Numbered from the stretch's first letter, positions 4,202 through 17,595 are shown. The stretch: 64,000 nucleotides of DNA from a virus (IMGVR_UViG_3300030000_000409:10284-74283); one strand, 5' to 3'. Notes: generated by a model from the letters alone, not told the origin. A program made the numbers and translations.

Positions 4202-5812
4202 ATGTCAAACTTTTACGTTGATACCGTTGCGCCAAAAATCTCCAAGCAAGTAACTCCTCAAACTGAAAAAATTCCAGGTCGCGAATCAGAAATGGTTGCG
4301 AACAATGCTGGTGGTCAAGTTTTTGCTCTTGACATGTGGAGCTACTTGGATCGATTCTTGATTCTCGGAAGTGATAAACCTTCCTACTATGCAACTGCAC
4401 AGAAGTTGACAAAAGATGCAGCTAAAAATGTCTCAGTTTGTATCAGTGCAGACGGTGTGAAAACTGTTAATCGCATTGTTGAAATCTCTCAAGGTGGTCG
4501 TGCTCCTAAGAATGATTCAGCAGTATTTGCTCTTGCAATGTGTGCAGTTTCCGGTGATGCCGAAACTGTTGCTGCTGCTTATGATGCACTATCAAAGGTT
4601 GCACGAATCGGTACCCACTTGTTCCAATTCGTTGATGCAATAAATTCAATGGGTAAATGGAATGCTGCTGCTAAACGCGGTGTTGCTGCTTGGTATACTA
4701 AGCGTGATGAAACTCGTTTGGCTGTTCAACTCTTGAAATATCAATCACGTAATGGTTGGTCTCACCGTGATGTCTTGCGTCTTGCTCACATCAAGCCAAC
4801 AAACGAATCACAGTCAGCATTGTTCCGTTATGTAACCAAGGGTGCTGAAGGTGTCGAACAAGGAACCATTGTTCCACAACTTTTGATTGATTTCGAGACT
4901 TTGAAGCGTGGTGTAGATTCTAAGAAGGTGATCAGCATCATCGAATCTAACAAGGATATTTCATGGGAAATGATTCCTACTGAATTCCAAAAAGACGTAA
5001 ATGTTATGGCAACACTTATCCCTGGTATGGGTGTTACTGCACTGATTCGTAAGTTGGGTCAACTAACTTCTTTGGGTTTGGCTAAACCTCTTTCCACTGA
5101 ATTGAAAGCAATCGTTGATAAGTTGACTGATGTTGCTGCAATTAAGTCAGGACGTGTTCACCCAATCACTATCTTGAATGCATTTAACCAATACAAACAA
5201 GGTCATGGTGATAAAGGTTCATTGACTTGGACTCCATCTCAACATATTCTTGATGCATTGGATGCTGCATTTTACGATGCATTTCAGTTCATTGAATCAA
5301 CTGGTCAGGGTCACCTTATCGGTGTTGATTGTTCTGGTTCTATGTTTAGCTACCAATGTATCGGTGCTAGCAATATCACTGCCGCAGAAGCAGCTGCTGT
5401 AATGGCTTTGGCTGTTGCGAAACGTGAATCCAATTACTGGATCGGTGGATTCAACACTCGTATGGGTGAATTGAAGATTTCTCCATCTATGCGTCTTGAT
5501 GCAGTTCTGAATGTTATGCGTAAGTTCTCTTGGGGTGGAACTGATTGTTCTCTTCCAATGGAACATGCTATCCAACAGAAAATGAGCAACGTTAACAAGT
5601 TCATCGTCTTTACTGACAATGAAACTTATGCAGGTAAGCGTCAGCCTGTGCAAGCTTTGGCTGATTACCGTAAGCGCTATGTTCATGATGCTAAGTTGAT
5701 CGTATGTGGAACTTCGGTTACCAACTTTACGATTGCTGATCCTAAGGATCCAGGCATGTTGGATATTGCAGGATTTGATTCTGCTGTACCTCAGTTGATT
5801 CAGAGTTTTTGA
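4202..5812 (+). CDS. rsr: Ro60-like TROVE-domain protein with C-terminal vWA (MIDAS) domain
   Basis: LDRFLILGSDKPSYYATAQKL and DSAVFALAMCAV match conserved Ro60/Rsr TROVE segments (LxRFLxxGSExGTYY, PMLFALAIC). The C-terminal GVDCSGSM is a vWA DxSxS MIDAS motif. GCT/GGT/CGT/GTT-rich codon usage resembles highly expressed phage genes. Confidence 0.75.
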   Translation: MSNFYVDTVAPKISKQVTPQTEKIPGRESEMVANNAGGQVFALDMWSYLDRFLILGSDKPSYYATAQKLTKDAAKNVSVCISADGVKTVNRIVEISQGGRAPKNDSAVFALAMCAVSGDAETVAAAYDALSKVARIGTHLFQFVDAINSMGKWNAAAKRGVAAWYTKRDETRLAVQLLKYQSRNGWSHRDVLRLAHIKPTNESQSALFRYVTKGAEGVEQGTIVPQLLIDFETLKRGVDSKKVISIIESNKDISWEMIPTEFQKDVNVMATLIPGMGVTALIRKLGQLTSLGLAKPLSTELKAIVDKLTDVAAIKSGRVHPITILNAFNQYKQGHGDKGSLTWTPSQHILDALDAAFYDAFQFIESTGQGHLIGVDCSGSMFSYQCIGASNITAAEAAAVMALAVAKRESNYWIGGFNTRMGELKISPSMRLDAVLNVMRKFSWGGTDCSLPMEHAIQQKMSNVNKFIVFTDNETYAGKRQPVQALADYRKRYVHDAKLIVCGTSVTNFTIADPKDPGMLDIAGFDSAVPQLIQSF

Positions 5813-7445: not shown

Positions 7446-7823
7446 ATGGAGTTTGATGTGAAACGTTTTCTATTCTGTTTAGCAATGTTTTCTTCTTCTG
7501 TGTTTGCACAGAATGTGAATAACTATCTTCCTGGTGCAGGTGAACGTATTCCAGAATCAGCATCTGGTCCGGGTATCGTCTATACCCAACAAGTTGTTGG
7601 TAAGGTTATCAGTGTTGGAAGTCCAGTTTACAAGAATGTTCCAGTTGTTCAACAATGCGCAAATGGTTCAGTATGTGGGGTTGCATTTGATAACCAATTG
7701 ATTGGCTACAGTTTTGTTGTTGCCTACAAACATCTTCAAATGCAAGGGTTCATGACTCGACTTCCTCAAATTGGTGAAGACAGTATCATCATTGTTCGTA
7801 GTATTTATTATCCTACAAATTGA
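7446..7823 (+). CDS. secreted protein with signal peptide, unknown function
   Basis: MEFDVKRFLFCLAMFSSSVFA|QN signal peptide. Confidence 0.4.
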   Translation: MEFDVKRFLFCLAMFSSSVFAQNVNNYLPGAGERIPESASGPGIVYTQQVVGKVISVGSPVYKNVPVVQQCANGSVCGVAFDNQLIGYSFVVAYKHLQMQGFMTRLPQIGEDSIIIVRSIYYPTN

Positions 7824-7843: not shown

Positions 7844-8413
7844 TTATGAATCACTGGGCAGTGAGAATCCCACTCTAATAGATATAACTGCACCGTCTGA
7901 GTTCCTTCTTATATATAACGTACCTTCAACGTAACCACCCGCATAGTCACCGTATGATGTTCCTACAACATTAAGTGTAGAAGTAATTGGTACATAACCT
8001 GAATCATACCCATTACCAACACCCACATTAAAAACTACCCATCCACCCATACTCACTGTTGTGACAAATCGTGCTGAGTATGCTGATCCGACTCCTGCTA
8101 TTGGTGGTGTTATGTAATTAACTGAGCATGATAGTGTCCCATTAGTATAGATTGAAAGGGAACCGGATGATGTGCCATTTGTACCAGAATTAAAAGTTCC
8201 ACCTGCATCCACATATGAAAGGTTTGGATTAAAGCCGAAGGTTCCACTAGCAGAACTTTTACCCCATCCATCACTCATAGAAATTATTCCACTTGGTTTT
8301 CCGAATAGAGTTCTCACTGCAGTATCATTTAATGATATAGGAGTAGTTGAGCCTGCCCCCAGTTCTGTGTTGACTTGTGATAGTGATATAAGGCCAGAAG
8401 CAGGAAGTGTCAT
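7844..8413 (-). CDS. tail-fibre tip/adhesin paralog 3 (conserved N-terminus MTLPASGLISLSQVN, G/S/T/N/Y-rich variable C-terminus)
   Basis: Shares ~50-aa N-terminus with the two upstream genes and a divergent glycine-rich C-terminus. Lies directly downstream of the tail-fibre gene. Confidence 0.5.
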   Translation of the reverse strand: MTLPASGLISLSQVNTELGAGSTTPISLNDTAVRTLFGKPSGIISMSDGWGKSSASGTFGFNPNLSYVDAGGTFNSGTNGTSSGSLSIYTNGTLSCSVNYITPPIAGVGSAYSARFVTTVSMGGWVVFNVGVGNGYDSGYVPITSTLNVVGTSYGDYAGGYVEGTLYIRRNSDGAVISIRVGFSLPSDS

Positions 8414-8425
8414 AATTTATCTATT

Positions 8426-8956
8426 TTAAGCAATTGATACTTGATATGTACCACCAGCACCAAATCCAAACAATGAGTTGGTCCAAGTCCAAATACTATA
8501 GTTGTAAGCTGGATATGCTTCAAAAGTCGCACTTGATGTAAGTAATGTTTTATTATTAGCAGAAACAGATTTAACAAATGTTGAACTAACAACACCTATA
8601 AGCATTAAGAAACATACATTTGCTGTATAATACGCACCATCAGAAGTTTGATCAGCAAACCACACTATTTCAACTCCATTGAAATAGTGATTAGATAGTG
8701 AACCCATATTACCCCACGCATAAGGACTATATCCAACTCCAAGTCCACTGGACATGTTACCACCAGCAACCATAGTGTACCCGGTTCCAATGGCTGTACT
8801 TTTACCCCATCCATCACTAAGTGATATAATCCCACTAGGTTTACCAAATAATGTTCTTACCGAAGAATCATTTAATGAGCATGGCGAAGTAGCTGAATTA
8901 CCTAATTCAACGTTGACCTGTGAAATGGAAATTGTTCCTGAAGCTGGTAATGTCAT
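8426..8956 (-). CDS. tail-fibre tip/adhesin paralog 2
   Basis: N-terminus MTLPASGTISISQVNVELG..SLNDSSVRTLFGKPSGIISLSDGWGKS is conserved with paralogs 1 and 3; the C-terminus is variable. Confidence 0.5.
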   Translation of the reverse strand: MTLPASGTISISQVNVELGNSATSPCSLNDSSVRTLFGKPSGIISLSDGWGKSTAIGTGYTMVAGGNMSSGLGVGYSPYAWGNMGSLSNHYFNGVEIVWFADQTSDGAYYTANVCFLMLIGVVSSTFVKSVSANNKTLLTSSATFEAYPAYNYSIWTWTNSLFGFGAGGTYQVSIA

Positions 8957-8971
8957 AATTTATCCACTGTT

Positions 8972-9487
8972 TTAAGAAATTGATATTTGATAAGATGAAC
9001 CATTATTAAAAAGTGGTATTTGAGAAGTAGTCCAGCTCCACACGGTTAGTGACTCATATTGATAGTAAGTAGAAGAAGAAGAATATACCGTTGTACCAGC
9101 ATATAAAATTGAAGTAAAAAAATTCTGTGCAACTAAACCCAAAATTGTAAATTCAAGATAGTAGAGATTAGTCCCATTACCCATTGCACTAGTGTATAGG
9201 TCTACAACTGTTAAACCTTTGAATGTATCCGGTGATAAGCTACCTATAAGACCAAATGGTGGGTAAACATAACCTGTTCCATATCCATTAGTGCCTGCTA
9301 CTAAAGTGTGAGTTGACCCAGTTGAATTGCTTTTACCATATAGATTGAATAAACTTATGGCACCACTTTGTATACCTGCTAAATTTCTAACAACTGAATC
9401 ATTCAATGAAATTGTGGTGGTCGCCGCTTTACCAAGCTCAACATTCACTTGAGATAGTGAAATTAATCCAGATGCTGGTAACGTCAT
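8972..9487 (-). CDS. tail-fibre tip/adhesin paralog 1
   Basis: Conserved N-terminus MTLPASGLISLSQVNVELG; starts 2 nt after the tail-fibre stop. Confidence 0.5.
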   Translation of the reverse strand: MTLPASGLISLSQVNVELGKAATTTISLNDSVVRNLAGIQSGAISLFNLYGKSNSTGSTHTLVAGTNGYGTGYVYPPFGLIGSLSPDTFKGLTVVDLYTSAMGNGTNLYYLEFTILGLVAQNFFTSILYAGTTVYSSSSTYYQYESLTVWSWTTSQIPLFNNGSSYQISIS

Positions 9488-9488
9488 T

Positions 9489-12400
9489 TTATTTGTTCTT
9501 CAAAAGATCAATTTCAGCTTTGAGCTCTTTGATAGCTTCAATTAACAATGGCACTATCTTACTGTAATCAACAGTTTTAAATTTTTCACCGTCTAACTCA
9601 ATAGACTCAGTAACAATTTCTGGCATAATACTATTTACTTGATCTGCATTAATACCGTAATCATGTTTACCTGCTTTCATTTCAGTATGTTGGAAACCAT
9701 GCTTCCATGTAAATGTACCACCATCCAACTTAGAAATCATTTCAAGAGGATTTTGAATACGTGTGAAGTTTTCTTTTAATCTTGGATCAGAATATGCAGA
9801 TACGTTACCAGCAGCAACCGTATTTCCAGATGGGTCAGTGTACCATGACCAAGCTGCACGAGACCAACCACCAATACCAAAGTATCCATCTGCACGAACA
9901 CCCATCTTGATAGCATATGTATCATTGTAAAATGATAAACCAGCTAAATTAGTATCGCCAGCTCCAGATGCTCTACACACAAAAGAACCTGGTGATGTAT
10001 CATTGACAGCCATTCCAACACCACTTGTTCTACCAGTTATCAAGCTCGTCTGAGCAGTAGCGCTTAAGTATGTAGCAGTACCTGCATTTCCAGAAATGTT
10101 GGTTTGATCACCGGTATTAACACCAGATAGAGTAGTTATACCTAATTTAGTTTTAATCGTGGCGGCAGTTTCATCACCAGTATTGCTACCAGAAACTGCA
10201 TCAAGTTTAATTTTATCAGCAGCTGACATGAAACCGTTAATAGCGGTAGTTACTACAGCATGAGCAGCACCATTGGAACCAACGTGGGCCAATGGTGCAC
10301 TTGCAGCAATTGCGGCAGCTTGTGCACCATTAATGGCTGACGCTTGAGCTGTTGATACTGGCTTATTAACATCTGATATATTATCTACGTTACCTAATCC
10401 AACATCAGCCTTAACCAATGTTACTACACCTGTCTTACCAGCAACAGAATCAACTGCGCCAGAAGTAATGTAAACATAACTACTACCAGACCATCTGTAA
10501 GTCTTGTTGGTATCTAAAGCAACATAAATCTTACCTGATTCACCAGTTGCTGGGAATGCTGCTAAGTTGGCAGCTTCGATAACATCATCAACATAACTTG
10601 GCAACTGAGTTGTTGGAACTTTTCCAGTATTATCAAGTGTTGCAACTCCATTTAATGCGCCCAAAAGAGAACTTGCAACCCTACTAGTAGAATCAATAGC
10701 ATTAATTATTATGTCTGCTGAACCGTTAAAAGAAACCCCGTTGATAGTACGGGCTGTTTGCAACGTTGTTGCTGTTGCAGCGTTACCTGAAATAGTAGTC
10801 TGTATTTGGTGAACGTGATCTGCTCTAGCAGCAGTAGTACTAGTTCCAACAGCAGCAGTTCCATTATTTAATGGGGTTGTTGAAGAAAGACCGGTAATAG
10901 AATTAAATGATGTTCCAGTGATAGCTCCGGTAACTGCGAGTGAGCCAAGAGTTCCAAGAGATGTTATGTTAGGTTGTGCGGCAGTTTGAAGTGTACCAGC
11001 AAATCCAATAGCAGATAATATTCCAGTGCTAGGAATAAAAGAAAGTTTTGAATTTGAAACGTTCAATGTTTGATCGCCTGAAATATCACTCACCCATACT
11101 GGATAAACAGCAGTAGATGGAAGAACATCATTCGTTACATTAGATGCTGCAGATGAAGATGCAGAGACAGTTGATGTTGAGATACCAGTTACCAAACCCT
11201 TAGCATTAACTGTCACAATTGGAATTAATGTAGCAGAACCAAATGTTCCAACATTGGAATTTACTGTAGCCAATGTAGCATTTATTGTAGCATTTGCACT
11301 ACCATTAAATGATGCTGAACCAGATATATCAGCAGCTAATGTGATAGTTCTTGATGTTGCAAGTGCATTTGCAGTAGAAGCATTTCCAATTAAGCTAGCA
11401 GTTATTGTTCCAGCTGAAAAATTACCAGATGTATCTCTTGAAACTATAGTGGATGCAGTATTTACAGATGTTGCATTAGAGTCTATGATTATATTTCCAT
11501 TGACGCCATCAGGATTCGTTATGGATAATCCTACACCAGTAACAGCGACAGAACGAGAAGCACTAGCACCACTAGCTATTTTAACAATTAAACCATTTGA
11601 TGATAATCCAGTGACAGATGTAAGCAATGTGTTTAATGGTTGTGCATCAGTAATTCCATAACCTGTTAATGTGGTTGGAGTATTGACAATCGTTGACCAC
11701 GGTTGAGTTGAAGATGCAGAAATAACTCTACCGTAAATATCAACTGTTACATTTGAATAAAGTCCAGCAGATACACCAGTAGCTGCCAAATCAATAGTGT
11801 CAACATCAACGGTAATTCTTGAAGATGATGCAGTACCGACACTGAATGTATTACCAGATTTTGTTAAACCAGCACCAGCAACTAATTCACCAGGTCTACT
11901 GAACACTGAGAATGCTAATGGTGAAGTACCTAAAACTATGGTGCCATACGTTACTAAGATCCAAGAACTGTTTCCATTTAATGTTCCAGTTTCAACATAT
12001 ACAAGGTCACCAGCAGCAACTTCATTGGTTGGAGATCCATCAAAGTCAGTAGCTCTTGCCCATGCACCAGAAGAAACAACATAAACACCGTTTTCAGCAG
12101 CATTCGTTTGATCTTTTACCAATACACGTGTTCCAGAACCAGCAATAACACCATCTAAAGTTTGGATACCAGATAATGCAATATTTGCAGTTGTTGAAGT
12201 TAACACTGCTAAATGTGGTGACACACCAGCAGCAATATTATCAACGTAATCTTTTGTTGTTAAATGAGAACCAGATACTGGTGAAGCTCCAGTTACAGGA
12301 GAAGAGAATGTCCAGGAACCGGTAACTGTTTCATTTCCAGCAACTCTCGTAAGAACATTTGCATCTGCGATCTGTGATTCATTTATTGAAAGAGCTGCTT

Positions 12401-13064
12401 GGTGTTGTGTTACATTGTTAGAAGAGATTCTAGAATTATTAAATGTACCAGAAACTATAGCAGATGTATCAATGCTCGGTGAATTATTTGATGCTGAAGA
12501 AATTCTACCCTTTGAATCAACAGTGAATGATGGAATAGAAGAATTGGATCCATAAGTCCCTGCACTTACTCCACTAGCTGATAATGTGAGTGTTATAGAT
12601 GTTGAACCTGATCCAACACCATCACCTGAAATACTAATATTCTGGTTAGCTGAAAGATATGAATTTGTGTCTAGAGTCCAAGTATTGACTGCAATTTTCT
12701 TTAATGTACCAAAACTTCCAGAGAGTGCAGCAATGGAAGTAAGATCACCATCAAGTGATTGTGCATCTGTTATTCCATAACCAGCTAACGTTGTTGGTTT
12801 AGAACCACCTACAACTAGTCCCTTACTATTTACATTTACCAATGAATATGTACCAGCAGAAATCACGGCGGGCAACAACAATGTTAAATCAGAAGAAGCA
12901 CTCAATTGAGGAACCCATGATGCACCATTGTTAACAAAAAGTTGATCCAAATCTGACTTATAAAAAAGTTCTCCTATTTGTCCAATAGGTAAAACCGTAC
13001 CAGAAGAAACTGCTAAATTTGAAACCTCTGATCCATCTACCATTTTGATACTGTCGAATAACAT
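9489..13064 (-). CDS. tail fibre protein (1191 aa) with C-terminal intramolecular chaperone / peptidase S74 autoproteolytic domain
   Basis: Repeated fibre motifs (TLAGYGITDAQ twice) in a Gly/Ser/Thr-rich beta-rich sequence. The C-terminal ~100 aa, YSDPRLKENF...GGTFTWKHG...VDYSKIVPLLIEAIKELKAEIDLL, matches the S74 intramolecular chaperone consensus (SD.RLK.NI...F.WK...LL.EAIKEL). The cleavage Ser codon is near 9789-9791. Confidence 0.75.
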   Translation of the reverse strand: MLFDSIKMVDGSEVSNLAVSSGTVLPIGQIGELFYKSDLDQLFVNNGASWVPQLSASSDLTLLLPAVISAGTYSLVNVNSKGLVVGGSKPTTLAGYGITDAQSLDGDLTSIAALSGSFGTLKKIAVNTWTLDTNSYLSANQNISISGDGVGSGSTSITLTLSASGVSAGTYGSNSSIPSFTVDSKGRISSASNNSPSIDTSAIVSGTFNNSRISSNNVTQHQAALSINESQIADANVLTRVAGNETVTGSWTFSSPVTGASPVSGSHLTTKDYVDNIAAGVSPHLAVLTSTTANIALSGIQTLDGVIAGSGTRVLVKDQTNAAENGVYVVSSGAWARATDFDGSPTNEVAAGDLVYVETGTLNGNSSWILVTYGTIVLGTSPLAFSVFSRPGELVAGAGLTKSGNTFSVGTASSSRITVDVDTIDLAATGVSAGLYSNVTVDIYGRVISASSTQPWSTIVNTPTTLTGYGITDAQPLNTLLTSVTGLSSNGLIVKIASGASASRSVAVTGVGLSITNPDGVNGNIIIDSNATSVNTASTIVSRDTSGNFSAGTITASLIGNASTANALATSRTITLAADISGSASFNGSANATINATLATVNSNVGTFGSATLIPIVTVNAKGLVTGISTSTVSASSSAASNVTNDVLPSTAVYPVWVSDISGDQTLNVSNSKLSFIPSTGILSAIGFAGTLQTAAQPNITSLGTLGSLAVTGAITGTSFNSITGLSSTTPLNNGTAAVGTSTTAARADHVHQIQTTISGNAATATTLQTARTINGVSFNGSADIIINAIDSTSRVASSLLGALNGVATLDNTGKVPTTQLPSYVDDVIEAANLAAFPATGESGKIYVALDTNKTYRWSGSSYVYITSGAVDSVAGKTGVVTLVKADVGLGNVDNISDVNKPVSTAQASAINGAQAAAIAASAPLAHVGSNGAAHAVVTTAINGFMSAADKIKLDAVSGSNTGDETAATIKTKLGITTLSGVNTGDQTNISGNAGTATYLSATAQTSLITGRTSGVGMAVNDTSPGSFVCRASGAGDTNLAGLSFYNDTYAIKMGVRADGYFGIGGWSRAAWSWYTDPSGNTVAAGNVSAYSDPRLKENFTRIQNPLEMISKLDGGTFTWKHGFQHTEMKAGKHDYGINADQVNSIMPEIVTESIELDGEKFKTVDYSKIVPLLIEAIKELKAEIDLLKNK

Positions 13065-13118
13065 GCAAGACTCCTAGTTATATTAATTACTTGTATTTAT
13101 TGAATGATGCTAATTCTG

Positions 13119-13126: not shown

Positions 13127-13155
13127 CTACGTTATTACTATTCGGAAATCATGTG

Positions 13156-14037
13156 ATGCTTTCATTTAAATCTTTTCTTTTTGAGGGTGGGAATGCTGTT
13201 CAAAAATACAACGTATCAAGAGCAAATCCTGCTGATGTGAAGGCCTGTTTAGAATTTGTATCCAAGCATTTGGGTATACCATATGATGAAATTAAAAATG
13301 ACTTATTAGGTTCAACAGAACTAACATTTCTTGGTAAGAAAAAAGATAGCGGTGATGTTGATATTGCCTTTTCATTAGAACATGTTGATGTGAATGATGT
13401 TAACAAAAAGATGTTAGCTGCTGTAAATGGAGAAGGTACCTATAATGCAGGTACAAAAGTTGGATCTTATGCTGTCCCAGTAAATGGGAAGAAGATTCAG
13501 GTCGATTTAATGTTTGTGTCAAATAAAATTTGGGCTAAATGGATGTACCATTCTTCACAAGGTAATGGATCTGCTTATCCTGGTGTAGTTAGAAACATTT
13601 TACTTTTTACAACACTAGCACATACACAGACCCCTGGTAAAGATTTCGTGTTAAGAGACACTGAAGGTAAACCCGTCATACGTGCATCAAAGTCAATTAA
13701 TATGGATGCTGGTATGAAGAGACTTTTTAAGATGTCAAAAGTAAATTCAAAAACCGGTAAATACAATAAGTCAATTGACACAGTCGAACCATCTGAGATT
13801 GAATCACATTTGAAATCTATAGGAAAAAATATCCCATTTTCAAAGGATAGAGATTTCACTGACAAACCTGATGATGTTGCTAAATTTATTTTTGGAGATT
13901 CTGTTAAAGGAACAGATTTAATGACGGCAGAAAATGTCATTTCTCAGATTAAGAAACTGAAAAATGCAACTGAAATAATAAATGCATCAAAGAAAGAACT
14001 AACACGTCTCAATTTACCAATACCTAAAGAACTATGA
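13156..14037 (+). CDS. Pol-beta-superfamily nucleotidyltransferase-fold protein with CTS-like N-terminus (candidate packaged/injected enzyme)
   Basis: LGSTELTFLGKKKDSGDVDIAFS is the minimal NTase signature hG[GS]x9-13Dh[DE]h. N-terminus MLSFKSFLFE|GG has an L-x-E site. A GTG at 13153 is the alternative start. Confidence 0.45.
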   Translation: MLSFKSFLFEGGNAVQKYNVSRANPADVKACLEFVSKHLGIPYDEIKNDLLGSTELTFLGKKKDSGDVDIAFSLEHVDVNDVNKKMLAAVNGEGTYNAGTKVGSYAVPVNGKKIQVDLMFVSNKIWAKWMYHSSQGNGSAYPGVVRNILLFTTLAHTQTPGKDFVLRDTEGKPVIRASKSINMDAGMKRLFKMSKVNSKTGKYNKSIDTVEPSEIESHLKSIGKNIPFSKDRDFTDKPDDVAKFIFGDSVKGTDLMTAENVISQIKKLKNATEIINASKKELTRLNLPIPKEL

Positions 14038-14951
14038 AACTACATGAACTATTTGAAGGCATCAAAAAAGATGACCAATTCAAAAAAGATTTAGCACTAT
14101 TCATTAACAATTTGAACGCAATGATAAAAGCTAAGAAGCTACTTTTCAGGGGTTTAGATAACATGGGCATCAATATGAAATCCACATCTGTGGAAAATGG
14201 GGATGATTTAATTTGGAAAATTATAAAAGGTCGAGTAGATTCTATTAAGTCAGGAAATCGTGGTCCTAGAGAATCACTAACAGGAATAAATTTAATTTTG
14301 AATGTGACTACAAATTTCCCTTCATGGAGTAAAATACCTAAAAGAAAGTTTAGTACTAGTTGCACCAGTTCTGGATATGATGCTAGTTTTTTCGGTGATG
14401 TATTTGTTATTGTTCCCGCTGACAATGTTAAAAAATTCGCAATGTCAACAGGAGACTTTAATGAGTTGAGGATTAATAGTTCACCAATAATATCTTTAAC
14501 ACCAGCACTAAGTAATATTACTAAAACTTATATCGAAATAAATAATTTAAATATAAAGGAATTAGTTTCCTATGATCAATTTAAGGCTTTTTACAAGTGG
14601 GCTGATGCTAATTTATTAACACCTCCAACAAAACCATCTATTGGAAAAATAAATAAGTCGCATTATTCACTTACTACTGGTGCAGATGCAATATCATTTT
14701 TGAAAAACATGAAATGTTCTTCATTTGAAGAATTCTTTGAAGATAGGTTGTCACCATCAAAATTGGGAATATTAGAGTTTGATTCAATTGATGAACTTTT
14801 AAATAATCCAAAATCATCTAAGTCAAATGAGGTTTGGTTTGAGGGTGATTATTTACTCATCACTTCTGATTTCTTTGATAATTATTCTGGCATGAATCAA
14901 TCTGGTTTAACCACACAATTTTCAAAAATGATAAAACGGGTAATAGGGTAA
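14034..14951 (+). CDS. MKLHELFE-family paralog A (CTS-like N-terminus; possible Alt/Mod-like ADP-ribosyltransferase)
   Basis: N-terminus MKLHELFE, then LLFRGL (aromatic-Arg), PRESLTGINL and FSTSCTSSG (STS-like). Paralogous to the genes at 14955 and 15868. Confidence 0.4.
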   Translation: MKLHELFEGIKKDDQFKKDLALFINNLNAMIKAKKLLFRGLDNMGINMKSTSVENGDDLIWKIIKGRVDSIKSGNRGPRESLTGINLILNVTTNFPSWSKIPKRKFSTSCTSSGYDASFFGDVFVIVPADNVKKFAMSTGDFNELRINSSPIISLTPALSNITKTYIEINNLNIKELVSYDQFKAFYKWADANLLTPPTKPSIGKINKSHYSLTTGADAISFLKNMKCSSFEEFFEDRLSPSKLGILEFDSIDELLNNPKSSKSNEVWFEGDYLLITSDFFDNYSGMNQSGLTTQFSKMIKRVIG

Positions 14952-14954
14952 AAA

Positions 14955-15866
14955 ATGAAACTACATGAATTGTTTGAAGATCAGAATGGTGATCAAGATT
15001 TAATCGACATCTTAAGAAAGCACTGTCCCAATAACTTAAAAGCTATGGCTTCAGGAAGGGCCCCAATGTTGTGGAGGGGTATGAATTGGGATGCTAGTAT
15101 TGAAACTCCTAAATACAAGTGTGACACGGTTAGTACACAGAAAACAAAACGCGAATCGAAAACTGGATCAAATCTGATAATGAGTTTCTTTTCAACAAAC
15201 AAAGACTGGGTTGAATCAACTGTTAATAGATCACTTTCTACTTCCACTTCCTGTTCGTACGATTACGCTTCACAGTTTTCTGGTCCAACATGGTTGGTTA
15301 TTCCATTTGATAATGTCAAACGTTTCAGTTATACATATACGGATTTAAATTTAGTTGATGTAAATGATACCTCGCTTATTGATTTGAATCACCAAATGAA
15401 GGATATTTCTAATGCAATAGAAGGTTTTCGTCATTGGAATTATGATAAGCTAGATAAAGATATTGCTAGAATAGCGCATGCTGATATTTTTGATTATGAT
15501 ATTGGGTCTCACCATTATTCAACTGAAGAAATAAAAGAATTTTCAAATCAGCTTGAAAAAATATTTGTATTGTTAAAGAATACAAAGAAAAGAAAAACAC
15601 TAGCAGTAACAGATGCAGCAACTTTCAAAGATATGGAAGAAGAAATGAATGACTCCTCCATGTATCGTTGGATGTTAAATGAACTCTCTCCATCTGCATT
15701 AGGTATAAAGACATTTAATTCTATAACTCAAATTCCTAATCATGTTAAAAAAGCTGAAGTATGGTTTGATGGGGATTATTTTATTTTTAGCCCAGTAGCA
15801 TCTCAGTTAACAGCATCACAACCTTTTAATATAGAATGGTTCAAAGAAATAATTGCAAAGGTATAA
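14955..15866 (+). CDS. MKLHELFE-family paralog B
   Basis: MKLHELFE...MLWRGM...KRESKTGSNL...LSTSTSCSY, the same motif order as paralog A. Confidence 0.4.
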   Translation: MKLHELFEDQNGDQDLIDILRKHCPNNLKAMASGRAPMLWRGMNWDASIETPKYKCDTVSTQKTKRESKTGSNLIMSFFSTNKDWVESTVNRSLSTSTSCSYDYASQFSGPTWLVIPFDNVKRFSYTYTDLNLVDVNDTSLIDLNHQMKDISNAIEGFRHWNYDKLDKDIARIAHADIFDYDIGSHHYSTEEIKEFSNQLEKIFVLLKNTKKRKTLAVTDAATFKDMEEEMNDSSMYRWMLNELSPSALGIKTFNSITQIPNHVKKAEVWFDGDYFIFSPVASQLTASQPFNIEWFKEIIAKV

Positions 15867-15867
15867 T

Positions 15868-16800
15868 ATGAAGTTGTTTGAACTATTTGAACAGAAGAAT
15901 GATTTAGCATCAGCAATAAAACAACACAGTCCCGATAATTTTAGAGCATTGATATCAGGCAGTGCACCAGCATTATATCGCGGAGTACATAGTAGAGTAT
16001 TAGAAGAAGGAAATTTCAACTACGATATAGTTAAAGAAAGAACTCAACCCAGAGAATCAATGACAAGATCAAATTTATTTTTAGATTTTACATCTGAAAG
16101 TAAAAGTTGGAAATCATTGGGGGTTGACAGAGCATTTTCTACATTCGTTACGGTGAATGTAGAAAATGCTGAAATATTTGGTGATCCATTTTTAATCATT
16201 CCATTTGACAATGTTTCAACTTTTGCATCAACACGTGCAGATTTCAATTTAGTAACATTTGGTAAAAATAAAAATTCTATATCACAGATTTCTAGAACAA
16301 TAGGATTTGTTTGTACTACGGTTATTCAGTTTGGGCAAAAATCAGGTTTCTTCAATAAGGTTTTACCAAAGGATTTTATCAACGTTATTAAAAATGGATT
16401 TATAACAAAATTTAGGAACATTAAACATTTTACACAGGATGACATTAAAAAATTATCTGATTCACTTGGTGCACTTAAATCACTGCCATTTGATTTAGAG
16501 ATTGAAAAGTTAAAATCTAGTGGATCACAAGAGTTAGCCATTATTCATTTAGAAGATCTTCAGAGCCAATTATTTACTTTAGATAAGATGCTATCAGGTA
16601 AATCGTTAAATGATTGGTTACAATTTAACATGTCACCTAAAGCTGTAGGCGTAAAAGTTTTTGAACATTATCAGGATATTATCGTTTCAAAAAATGCTGA
16701 ACTTTGGTTTAGAGGACAGTATATAATGATAAATCATGAATCAATTAAAATTGAAAAGTTATATTCTTCTAAAGAATTTGAAAATCTGATGCAAGTTTAA
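15868..16800 (+). CDS. MKLHELFE-family paralog C
   Basis: MKLFELFE...ALYRGV...PRESMTRSNL...FSTFVTV. ATG at 15868 is preceded by AAGG. Confidence 0.4.
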   Translation: MKLFELFEQKNDLASAIKQHSPDNFRALISGSAPALYRGVHSRVLEEGNFNYDIVKERTQPRESMTRSNLFLDFTSESKSWKSLGVDRAFSTFVTVNVENAEIFGDPFLIIPFDNVSTFASTRADFNLVTFGKNKNSISQISRTIGFVCTTVIQFGQKSGFFNKVLPKDFINVIKNGFITKFRNIKHFTQDDIKKLSDSLGALKSLPFDLEIEKLKSSGSQELAIIHLEDLQSQLFTLDKMLSGKSLNDWLQFNMSPKAVGVKVFEHYQDIIVSKNAELWFRGQYIMINHESIKIEKLYSSKEFENLMQV

Positions 16801-16851: not shown

Positions 16852-17595
16852 ATGCTTGGTTTATCTCTAAGAACACACAATGTTCGAAATCTCTTTATTT
16901 CCATCCTTGAACAAAAACTCTTTACTTCTGTAAATCGAGAAGGGTCAATGACTGACCTGGTTGGTAATACAACAATCGAAATTGTTAATGCATCGTTCAT
17001 TGCAGATGAACCTTCAATCTTCGGTGAAGTCAATTTAGATTATGTCAGACGTGAAGAAGAATGGTATAATTCAATGTCACTTAACGTGAATGATATTCCA
17101 GGTGGAGCTCCAGCAGTCTGGAAAGCAGTGGCTGATGAAAATGGTTTTATCAATTCCAATTACGGTTGGGCTATCTATTCTCCAGATAATGGTTTTGATG
17201 AACTACCTCTCAACGAGAATAATGAATTAAACTCTCAGTACGGTTCCGTAGTAAAAGAACTCCGTAAAAATCCTGAATCACGTCGAGCAATGATGATCTA
17301 CACTCGACCTTCAATGTGGTTAGATTACAACAAGAATGGTCGTTCTGACTTCATGTGTACGAATGCAGTCCAATATCTGATACGTGGTGGCAAAATCCAT
17401 TCAATAGTTCAGATGCGCAGCAATGATGCAGTGTTCGGTTACAAAAATGATTGGGCATGGCAAAAACACGTACTTGACAAATTAGCAAATGATTTAAGTA
17501 TTCCATCTGGGAATATTTTCTGGAATGTTGGAAGTCTTCATGTATATTCAAGACATTACCACCTTGTTGATCCAATTAACTACAGTAGGAAATAA
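16852..17595 (+). CDS. 42: deoxycytidylate (pyrimidine dNMP) hydroxymethylase, T4 gp42-like
   Basis: Near-collinear similarity to T4 gp42 as recalled: TIEIVNASFIADEPSIFG, INSNYGWAIYS, RRAMMIYTRPSM, DFMCTNAVQYLIR, MRSNDAVFGYKNDWAWQKHVLDKL, IFWNVGSLHVYSRHY. Confidence 0.75.
   Translation: MLGLSLRTHNVRNLFISILEQKLFTSVNREGSMTDLVGNTTIEIVNASFIADEPSIFGEVNLDYVRREEEWYNSMSLNVNDIPGGAPAVWKAVADENGFINSNYGWAIYSPDNGFDELPLNENNELNSQYGSVVKELRKNPESRRAMMIYTRPSMWLDYNKNGRSDFMCTNAVQYLIRGGKIHSIVQMRSNDAVFGYKNDWAWQKHVLDKLANDLSIPSGNIFWNVGSLHVYSRHYHLVDPINYSRK

Follow-up and report, generated by a model that had tools for sequence, protein, structure and literature searches.

The locus described here raises the question of why a tail fibre that carries its own intramolecular chaperone should be followed by three small genes that all begin alike. 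In the window, the 64,000-nucleotide stretch of viral DNA that was analysed, the four genes form tightly packed minus-strand ORFs with intergenic gaps of 1, 15 and 12 nt: a fibre gene of 1191 amino acids (9489-13064); g171 (171 aa, 8972-9487), whose start codon lies 1 nt past the fibre stop codon; g176 (176 aa, 8426-8956); and g189 (189 aa, 7844-8413). An earlier sequence-only reading had described this arrangement, and the ORF analysis bears it out. The ORFs of the three small proteins are intact, and they are 100 % identical in six independent metagenome contigs. The region upstream of the operon (13065-13110, minus strand) contains an AGGAG ribosome-binding site (13075-13071) and, at 13101-13094, the motif AATAAATA, which agrees at 7 of 8 positions with the T4 late-promoter consensus TATAAATA and is thus a candidate late promoter; a sigma-70 scan of the same region gave nothing better than shuffled sequence.

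The fibre is the counterpart of the distal subunit of long tail fibres and contains internal fibre repeats. In PHROG it matches families of tail fibres and of LTF distal subunits, among them phrog_11011 (residues 1079-1190). The Pfam family Peptidase_S74 (PF13884) is detected at residues 1092-1151 with E=1.6e-9 and a score of 38.4 bits, the cut-off being 22. The S74 domain (residues 1092-1191; 9489-9791, minus strand) reaches the last residues of the protein, at its extreme C-terminus. A PDB search returned 6F45_A, a 'long tail fiber distal subunit', aligning the S16 gp37 chaperone with that of the fibre at E=9e-8, and the fibre chaperone also aligns with T2-type gp37 tails. The conserved Ser-Asp...Lys cleavage motif is present as well (...NVSAYSDPRLKENF..., AYS/DPRLK, the slash marking the cleavage point), and from its position autocleavage is predicted to occur after Ser1092, within ...GNVSAYS/DPRLK.... 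The fibre thus ends in an S74 intramolecular chaperone, as had been proposed. The accompanying remark that such a domain is unusual beside T4-like genes does not hold, as gp37 of T2, T6 and S16 carries S74 (PMC7289586), which is therefore normal on a fibre of the T-even type. In these three phages, gp38 caps the fibre tip after the S74 chaperone has been cut away (PMC7289586; bioRxiv 10.64898/2026.05.12.724579); 6F45 is the co-crystal of S16 gp37 and gp38.

The sub-terminal tip segment of the fibre (9792-9980, minus strand; ...YFGIGGWSRAAWSWYTDPSGNTVAAGNVSAY) is the presumed docking platform for a partner of this kind. Ralstonia phage YL1_66 has a near-identical segment and JC1 gp59 a similar one. 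Among isolates, these two have the fibre tips most closely related to the present one, and in both cases the protein encoded next carries the N-terminal domain (N-domain) common to the three small proteins here. In an alignment, a junction motif is conserved among the fibres that precede N-domain genes.

The common domain comprises residues 1-55 of g171, g176 and g189 (nt 9323-9487, 8792-8956 and 8249-8413, respectively, minus strand), with pairwise amino-acid identities of 65-78 %, in agreement with the sequence-only reading. This likeness goes far beyond chance, since each protein scores E~1e-28 against the family profile, which has no other match in the 64-kb window. The signature of the domain is M-T-L-P-x-S-G-x-I-S-L-S-Q-V-N-x-E-L-G ... 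S-G-x-I-S-x-S-x-x-x-G-K-S. In each of the three proteins, the N-domain region is matched by PHROG 26817 and 26746, with E=4.5e-11 to 6e-7. Both are families without functional annotation.

The N-domain family has 185 database homologs, occurs in at least 511 IMG/VR contigs and is found in myo- and podophages (N4-like, T7-like, SU10-like, Bcep22-like). The domain is always N-terminal, starting at residue 1, and has a mean column identity of 65 %, while the C-termini are unrelated across the family. Among 114 homologs, the fusion partner is GP38 in 30, Gly_rich_2 in 7 and Fibrinogen_C in 3, and a few further proteins carry SprB, SPRY or PKD. Judged by its sequences, the family follows a modular plan in which a conserved, putative attachment module is joined to an exchangeable specificity module. 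Its members are annotated as 'hypothetical' in every isolate record examined, and the literature search found no publication that mentions the N-domain motif and no experiment on any family member.

The N-domain consists of three pseudo-repeats of ~17 aa, the internal three-fold repeat reaching P=0.0015 and 0.0025. AF2 predicts, with high confidence, three short helices in the domain, one per pseudo-repeat. In the model of g171 (pLDDT 88) they are followed by a β-sandwich, and for g189 the pLDDT is ~93 in the N-domain and <50 in the C-domain. An IMC-like helical fold was also considered for the small proteins and is ruled against by the model, with its three short helices and β-sandwich. Two N-domain subtypes can be distinguished, LAG/L in g171 and LFG/G in g176 and g189.

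All three copies are under purifying selection, with an N-domain dN/dS of ~0.15 and saturated dS among the paralogs, which, together with their intact reading frames, marks them as old and maintained. At the nucleotide level, the shared 5' ends are 61-69 % identical over 165 coding nt, synonymous sites are saturated (pS 0.71-0.79), and the longest exact matches measure 8, 8 and 21 nt. The suggestion that these ends serve as direct repeats for the recombinational shuffling of C-terminal modules is thereby weakened.

The C-terminal domains had been said to diverge completely. This is correct for g189, whose C-domain shows no relation to those of g171 and g176 (E=0.11 and 1.5), but not for the latter two, which are homologous (32 % identity, E=3e-12). 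For the g171/g176 C-domain, which occupies residues 58-170 of g171, a search of 1.84 billion representative proteins gave 35 relatives; the domain also terminates longer Ig-repeat and PT-linker proteins, a distal position. The database search with the g189 C-domain returned g189 itself as the sole match. The idea that the C-termini are glycine-rich has to be given up, as Pfam searches of g171, g176 and g189 gave no GP38, Gp38_N or Gly_rich_2 domain at E<=0.1, and the C-domains of g171 and g176 are instead predicted to be β-sandwiches.

Gene order connects the N-domain to S74 fibres well beyond this locus. At 40 of 87 N-domain loci the adjoining upstream gene ends in S74, with a gap of -20 to +12 nt, and these genes make up 40 of only 63 S74-like ORFs among 5,681 ORFs. 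Viewed from the fibre side, an N-domain gene lies downstream of the S74 fibre in 21/80 cases with a narrow profile and in 30/80 with an iterated profile; the overall estimate is 25-30 of 80. The four closest metagenomic relatives of the fibre chaperone have no canonical N-domain gene, and one of them (L104) has a divergent N-domain gene fused to a weak GP38 match. Isolate pairs of S74 fibre and N-domain protein are YL1_66 and YL1_67, JC1 gp57 and gp58, and JC1 gp59 and gp60. With 86 loci holding a single N-domain gene and three copies found only in this lineage, the tandem arrangement was rightly singled out: one fibre with three partners is unusual, the ratio elsewhere being 1:1.

These observations suggest, with a probability that we put at roughly 0.6, that the four genes belong to a single operon for host recognition, comparable in its working to gp37-gp38 of T2 and S16, in which the small proteins are alternative fibre-tip adhesins. 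The 1191-aa fibre would trimerise, aided by its own C-terminal S74 chaperone, which would then cleave itself off after Ser1092 and expose a conserved trimeric tip (...GGWSRAAWSWY...GNVSAYS). Each small protein would dock on the exposed tip via its ~55-aa N-domain and, since this is a single chain of three pseudo-repeats, one monomer could sit on the three-fold axis. The docked protein, then presumably a component of the virion, would expose its C-terminal domain for binding to the receptor. Given a common docking domain and two types of C-domain (that of g171 and g176, and the unrelated one of g189), each fibre may be loaded with one of the three tips, and a single virion would display a mixed receptor repertoire.

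Alternatively, the small proteins could be assembly factors comparable to T4 gp38, Mu Tfa, Pam3 gp25 or the 'transient chaperone caps' of A5 and V22; they would act in fibre folding or tip protection and would not be part of the infectious virion. Small genes directly 3' of fibre genes often encode chaperones (PMC7289586, PMC9608196, PMC10579305), and a weak BFVD match (E=3e-3) leads to a protein annotated as 'distal long tail fiber assembly catalyst'. Likewise, BcepIL02 gp60 is annotated as 'hypothetical' and not as 'virion-associated', and JC1 gp58 and gp60 are unlisted in the virion mass spectrometry, which, however, missed their fibres gp57 and gp59 too and therefore carries no information on this point (PMC9144972). 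T4 gp38, Tfa, gp25, A5 gp9 and V22 gp27 also come from small genes just past a fibre gene and act at the distal end, yet they serve fibres without an intramolecular S74, whereas the fibre here has its own. The Alteromonas caps A5 gp9 and V22 gp27 are helical, with the IMC-like DUF4376 (PMC10579305), a signal absent here, and in Tfa and gp25 the modularity is reversed, the conserved part being a C-terminal helical domain (PMC9608196) that the small proteins lack. Chaperone-family tests on the latter gave no Pfam hit and no S74-profile match. Nor would a chaperone have an obvious need for GP38, fibrinogen-C, SPRY and PKD modules, or for three copies with unrelated C-domains, and we consider an assembly function unlikely.

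Slightly less probable again is a heterotrimeric head, in which g171, g176 and g189 co-assemble on one tip with one N-domain per fibre subunit. Three genes in one tightly coupled operon would suit a three-fold symmetric fibre, selection maintains all three, and the LAG/L and LFG/G subtypes indicate that the three N-domain copies are not equivalent. However, both subtypes follow S74 fibres equally often, and the single-copy loci, together with JC1, in which each of two fibres has one partner, indicate that one gene product is sufficient; the N-domain, already an internal three-fold repeat, is compatible with a single chain on each trimer, the arrangement of S16 gp38. The N-domain might also dock away from the cleaved tip, on the shaft, another fibre or the baseplate. 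In that case the small proteins would form side branches or act as short adhesins in their own right, much as in receptor-binding-protein systems with branching. At 47 of the 87 loci the N-domain gene does follow a gene without S74; in Schizotequatrovirus PVA23 it stands alone among early genes, and in an SU10-like podophage an N-domain protein with GP38 comes after proteins of 175 and 217 aa. Yet for ~10 of the 47, according to the alignment labels, the gene two places upstream is an S74 fibre, and the strong enrichment right behind S74 fibres, where stop and start codons overlap, and the positional equivalence with Gp38_N render off-tip docking improbable, a shade more so than the heterotrimer. 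That the genes are redundant or decaying duplicates, or serve a non-structural purpose such as superinfection exclusion, is suggested by the orphan C-domain of g189 but appears very improbable in view of the intact ORFs, their identity across contigs and the low dN/dS at saturated dS; moreover, no signal peptide or lipobox was seen by eye in any of the three proteins.

The interpretation of the small proteins as alternative tip adhesins invites a broader proposal, which we advance tentatively and at rather less than even odds. The N-domain may be a new and very widespread single-chain, pseudo-three-fold adaptor that caps chaperone-processed trimeric fibre tips across many unrelated phage lineages and carries interchangeable monomeric receptor-binding modules. 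Its proteins would be the 'undetected external adhesin partners' that IMC-bearing fibres have been predicted to possess; in the present phage, three such tips would be loaded combinatorially on one fibre type, giving each virion a mixed repertoire. If the small proteins are indeed tip adhesins, a large family of receptor-binding proteins from phages, so far annotated as 'hypothetical', would gain a name and a recognisable signature, and tools that predict host range could locate what truly determines specificity in many S74-bearing fibres, a blind spot explicitly flagged in a 2026 preprint. A single docking domain whose ~120-aa tips can be exchanged would also offer a compact engineering scaffold, and the three-tip arrangement a simple test case for one fibre serving several receptors. 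This would extend the gp37-gp38 paradigm and introduce no new principle.

Among known systems, gp37-gp38 of T2, T6 and S16 (PDB 6F45; Gp38_N + GP38; PMC3157838) has the same order, an S74 distal fibre and then a small gene. Here, g171 lies directly downstream of a distal fibre with a putatively cleavable intramolecular chaperone, to which the S16 gp37 chaperone is homologous. T2/S16 gp38 and, putatively, the small proteins attach by a conserved N-terminal part and owe their specificity to a variable C-terminal one; the attachment domain of S16 gp38 has been described as three short helices (PMC9608196), the number also predicted for the N-domain. Classical gp38 has Gp38_N (1-40) before GP38 (45-259), and in GP38 fusions the N-domain (1-55) takes the same place. 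In contrast to Gp38_N, the N-domain is an internal triple repeat, and homology between the two is undetectable: Pfam returns nothing at E<=0.1, a PDB search with the N-domain profile turns up no gp38, and in an hhalign comparison with six classical gp38 sequences the probability is 0.2 % and E=0.31. The small proteins also lack the glycine-rich GP38 domain, having a predicted β-sandwich in g171 and g176 and an orphan domain in g189; they are three paralogs in place of a single gp38; and their N-domain family, unlike T2/S16 gp38, spans myo- and podophages. The gp38-type likeness first proposed therefore persists in the docking and binding plan, the GP38 fusions and the linkage to S74 fibres, but does not extend to Gp38_N homology or to a GP38 domain at this locus.

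Adhesins of RB43, RB42 and RB16 have been accepted as gp38-like on their modular plan and function despite an unrelated C-terminal domain (Trojet et al. 2011), and the same logic can be applied here, with the difference that their host-range role was shown genetically and that of the present proteins is putative. In JC1, YL1, the Vibrio N4-like phages MS02 and PhiImVa-1, Alteromonas AD45-P1 and Pelagibacter HTVC008M, an S74 fibre is directly followed by an N-domain protein annotated as 'hypothetical protein'; several of these proteins have glycine-rich C-domains, unlike those here, and each fibre has one small gene (in JC1, two fibres with one partner each) where the present fibre has three. 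Phage G7C, with gp63.1/gp66, and phage CBA120, with its tailspikes, are multi-RBP systems built on branched adaptors. In T5-like DT57C, LtfA and LtfB likewise provide several receptor-binding proteins with a common N-terminal docking module and a wider host range (PMC4728585). The components of these three systems, however, are large trimeric spikes or fibres placed side by side on adaptor domains, unlike the small putative tip caps described here. What sets this locus apart among gp38-like arrangements is the combination of one S74 fibre with a probable three-gene tip repertoire.

The fibre gene and the three small genes downstream of it form a compact operon on the minus strand, embedded in a block of otherwise plus-strand early and replication genes, with DHFR, TROVE/Ro60-vWA, helicase and topoisomerase II subunit genes among its neighbours. 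The gene for the 1191-aa fibre (9489-13064, minus strand) is followed on the same strand by g171 (8972-9487), g176 (8426-8956) and g189 (7844-8413), named for the lengths of their products, and the intergenic gaps from the fibre gene to g189 measure 1, 15 and 12 nt. Upstream of the fibre gene lie an AGGAG ribosome-binding site and a AATAAATA motif, which resembles the T4 late promoter and is a candidate promoter of this type. Scans for sigma-70 promoters and terminators yielded scores no better than those of shuffled sequence.

The fibre itself ends, as the sequence-only reading had recognized, in an S74 intramolecular chaperone, to which Pfam assigns residues 1092-1151 (Peptidase_S74, E=1.6e-9). 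By its PHROG matches it is a tail fibre or the distal subunit of a long tail fibre (LTF). Furthermore, its chaperone matches (E=9e-8) that of S16 gp37 as crystallised together with gp38 (6F45_A), and the tails of T2-type gp37 proteins align with its own. The presence of such a domain alongside T4-like genes had been considered unusual, a view that does not hold, since a cleavable intramolecular chaperone is present on gp37 of S16, T2 and T6 (PMC7289586; bioRxiv 10.64898/2026.05.12.724579).

The N-terminal homology noticed among the three small proteins was likewise confirmed: residues 1-55, hereafter the N-domain, are common to all three at 65-78% identity, and a search of the 64-kb window with N-domain and S74 profiles returned no further match besides the operon genes. 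The C-domains that make up the rest of each protein had been described as glycine-rich and completely divergent. Pfam, however, detects neither a GP38 nor a glycine-rich domain in any of the three, and complete divergence applies only to g189, as the C-domains of g171 and g176 are homologous (32% identity, E=3e-12). Nucleotide identity across the shared 5' parts is 61-69%, their synonymous sites are saturated (pS 0.71-0.79, with dN/dS of about 0.15), and uninterrupted identity extends over at most 8, 8 and 21 nt in the three pairs. The genes are therefore ancient paralogs under purifying selection on the protein, and not fresh repeats. Given such low identity and short exact matches, the 5' parts are also ill suited to intragenomic homologous recombination, which argues against their proposed role as recombining direct repeats.

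A search of 1.84 billion representatives with a profile of the g171/g176 C-domain found only 35 relatives, in several of which it is the last domain of a long Ig-repeat or PT-linker protein, in some cases behind a Pro/Thr-rich linker of about 500 aa, and one protein carries three tandem copies; examples of its use elsewhere are P0122 (378 aa), P0132 (994 aa), P0136, P0142 and P0145. The tandem triplication and the terminal placement in proteins of this kind suggest that the C-domain is a distal, mobile binding module, also used outside the N-domain context. For the g189 C-domain, the database search returned no homologs and AF2 gave no usable model.

The N-domain, by contrast with its absence from annotation, is widespread. 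It was found in 185 homologs among 5.8 billion proteins and on at least 511 IMG/VR contigs, beginning at residue 1 in all cases, and tblastn located it in Schizotequatrovirus, N4-like Schitoviridae, Autographiviridae, and Pelagibacter and Pseudomonas myophages, where its gene usually adjoins one annotated as 'tail fiber'. It is absent from Pfam, its matches in PHROG (26817 and 26746) are families of unknown function, every structural neighbour in BFVD is 'uncharacterized', and a full-text literature search for its motif returned nothing. AF2 predicts three short helices, confident in both models (block-mean pLDDT 86-94), and profile self-comparison resolves three pseudo-repeats of about 17 aa (repeat 1 versus 3, P=0.0015; 1 versus 2, P=0.0025; offsets of 17 and 18, summing to 35). 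Two covarying subtypes exist, A37/L49 (g171 and its numbering) and F37/G49 (g176 and g189), and mixed forms are almost absent across the family, consistent with a packed contact between these positions inside the three-helix domain. Glycine-rich, GP38-like C-termini are commoner in the F/G subtype (23/35, against 13/72 in A/L). The subtype was also considered as a predictor of the type of upstream partner, and it did not predict it.

Linkage between the N-domain and S74 fibres is evident from both directions. In 40 of 87 loci the gene just upstream of the N-domain gene encodes a C-terminal S74-type chaperone, the two genes being separated by -20 to +12 nt; these represent 40 of the 63 S74-like ORFs among 5,681 ORFs, and in about ten further loci the S74 fibre lies two genes upstream. 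From the fibre side, the sample comprised the 80 IMG/VR chaperones closest to that of the window fibre: a canonical N-domain gene lies downstream in 21, and an iterated profile raises this number to 30, of which 25 are adjacent, while more of the downstream genes appear N-domain-related by eye. Ten S74-fibre partners were sampled, of which five carry Gly_rich_2 and one a sub-threshold GP38 match. Among isolates, the closest fibre tips are those of Ralstonia YL1 (55% identity, with the same ...GGWSRAAWSWY..GNVSAYSDPRLK sequence) and Burkholderia JC1, and in both phages every S74 fibre is paired with an N-domain protein: YL1_66 with the glycine-rich YL1_67 (E=6e-11), JC1 gp57 with gp58 (E=1e-10), and JC1 gp59 with gp60 (E=7e-12). 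The two JC1 pairs are consecutive, in a cultured broad-host-range podophage. The linkage is strong but not absolute, as some N-domain genes stand alone or follow non-S74 proteins, and many S74 fibres precede other kinds of gene. A 'GN(V/I)TAYSD' junction was rejected as a mark of N-domain-partnered fibres, being common in S74 fibres generally.

Two further arrangements were observed at these loci. A second unannotated class of S74-fibre partner, of about 110-120 aa and starting MA..Y.(E/D)L..EQG..F..., occurs in roughly 10 of the 80 fibre-side loci, just after the fibre (L109, L115, L117, L131, L133, L149, L152, L153, L156 and L177). In some N-domain loci, an ORF of 113-133 aa lies between the fibre and N-domain genes.

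As a rule, a locus carries a single N-domain gene (86 loci). Two are present in Pseudomonas phage Milchi (5447-6552), where they follow one fibre and the second is only partly annotated, and in one locus (L086) that has one divergent and one canonical copy. Among the loci compared, three occur only in the present lineage. JC1 and Milchi are tractable systems for the family.

This phage is known solely from metagenome contigs; megablast found nothing matching the operon in a set of 50,697 phage records. Six independent contigs carry g189 DNA 100% identical to the window, four of them spanning all three genes, and this identity indicates a stable population. A 29-kb contig (L008; ENA ERZ27250048 k141_1890674) is the same as the window from g189 onward, and in place of g176 its nt 1-121 are AT-rich, non-coding and not in the window. 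The junction, at window position 8426, falls exactly at the g176 stop and g189 ribosome-binding site, and the contig is either a population variant with a different set of cassettes or the product of an assembly tip, as the 121 nt fall short of k=141.

Other features surround the operon. Convergent with g189, and ending 20 nt from it, is a 125-aa ORF (7446-7823, plus strand) that matches nothing in Pfam or PHROG; its N-terminus appears signal-peptide-like by eye (MEFDVKRFLFCLAMFSSSVFAQN), and its product is possibly secreted or periplasmic. The TROVE/Ro60-like protein with a vWA domain (4202-5812, plus strand) belongs to PHROG 850, 'RNA-binding protein', and genes for a TROVE and an RNaseH-like protein likewise flank the LTF operon of Schizotequatrovirus 6E35-1a. 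Rfam and tRNA scans of the whole window found no Y-RNA-like element or other match. A second paralog array lies about 1 kb from the operon, beyond 13153-14037: three tandem paralogs of about 300 aa (14034-16800, plus strand), all starting MKL(H/F)ELFE... and one matching PHROG 12810 (unknown function), to which 13153-14037 and 16852-17595 (plus strand) possibly also belong.

Beyond gene structure and family membership, we infer the following mechanism. The fibre would trimerise with the aid of its own chaperone, which would then cleave itself after Ser1092 and bare the trimeric tip. A single pseudo-three-fold N-domain could cap this tip and display a monomeric C-terminal binding module, and alternative loading of the three paralogs would yield virions with a mixed repertoire. 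We place the probability that the small proteins are adhesins working in this gp38-like way at roughly 60%. That they are instead assembly chaperones or transient caps is unlikely, as the fibre already possesses its own chaperone, and the small proteins have the modularity and fusion partners of binding proteins. The A5/V22 'chaperone cap' proteins were considered as a match and rejected, as they belong to a different, IMC-like family with another fold and context (PMC10579305).

A tip in which g171, g176 and g189 assemble together as a heterotrimer seems less probable again, and docking of the N-domain somewhere other than the fibre tip slightly more doubtful than that. Very improbable is a set of decaying duplicates or a non-structural role. 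The literature search returned no experiment that speaks either for or against the presence of N-domain proteins in the virion. The mass spectrometry list for JC1 virions lacks gp58 and gp60, and equally their fibres gp57 and gp59 (PMC9144972). In the virions of one Schizotequatrovirus, a 187-aa protein encoded after the LTF was detected (PMC12028318 supplement); as a candidate family member it was rejected, being an unrelated TM and coiled-coil protein.

The feature is thus real and its earlier description mostly correct; what is unusual is one fibre with three putative tips, and what is new is a widespread, unannotated domain, putatively for attachment, in place of Gp38_N. When 114 N-domain homologs were scanned against Pfam, 30 carried GP38 ('phage tail fibre adhesin'), seven Gly_rich_2, three Fibrinogen_C and a few SprB, SPRY or PKD, while the C-termini of about 70 were unclassified, as in g171, g176 and g189. 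In classical gp38, Gp38_N spans residues 1-40 and GP38 residues 45-259, whereas GP38 domains fused to an N-domain start near residue 66, just past the 55-aa N-domain, which therefore occupies the attachment-domain slot. The N-domain was also considered as a divergent Gp38_N and, as far as comparison of sequences and profiles can tell, rejected, with no Pfam or PDB match and an hhalign probability of 0.2%. By these comparisons g171, g176 and g189 fall outside the Gp38_N/GP38 family. The proposed resemblance to gp38-type adhesins therefore draws its support from analogy and from linkage in the genome, and none from membership of the family; the three proteins plausibly work like the gp38 of T2- and S16-type phages, with the N-domain as a putative attachment domain at the fibre tip.
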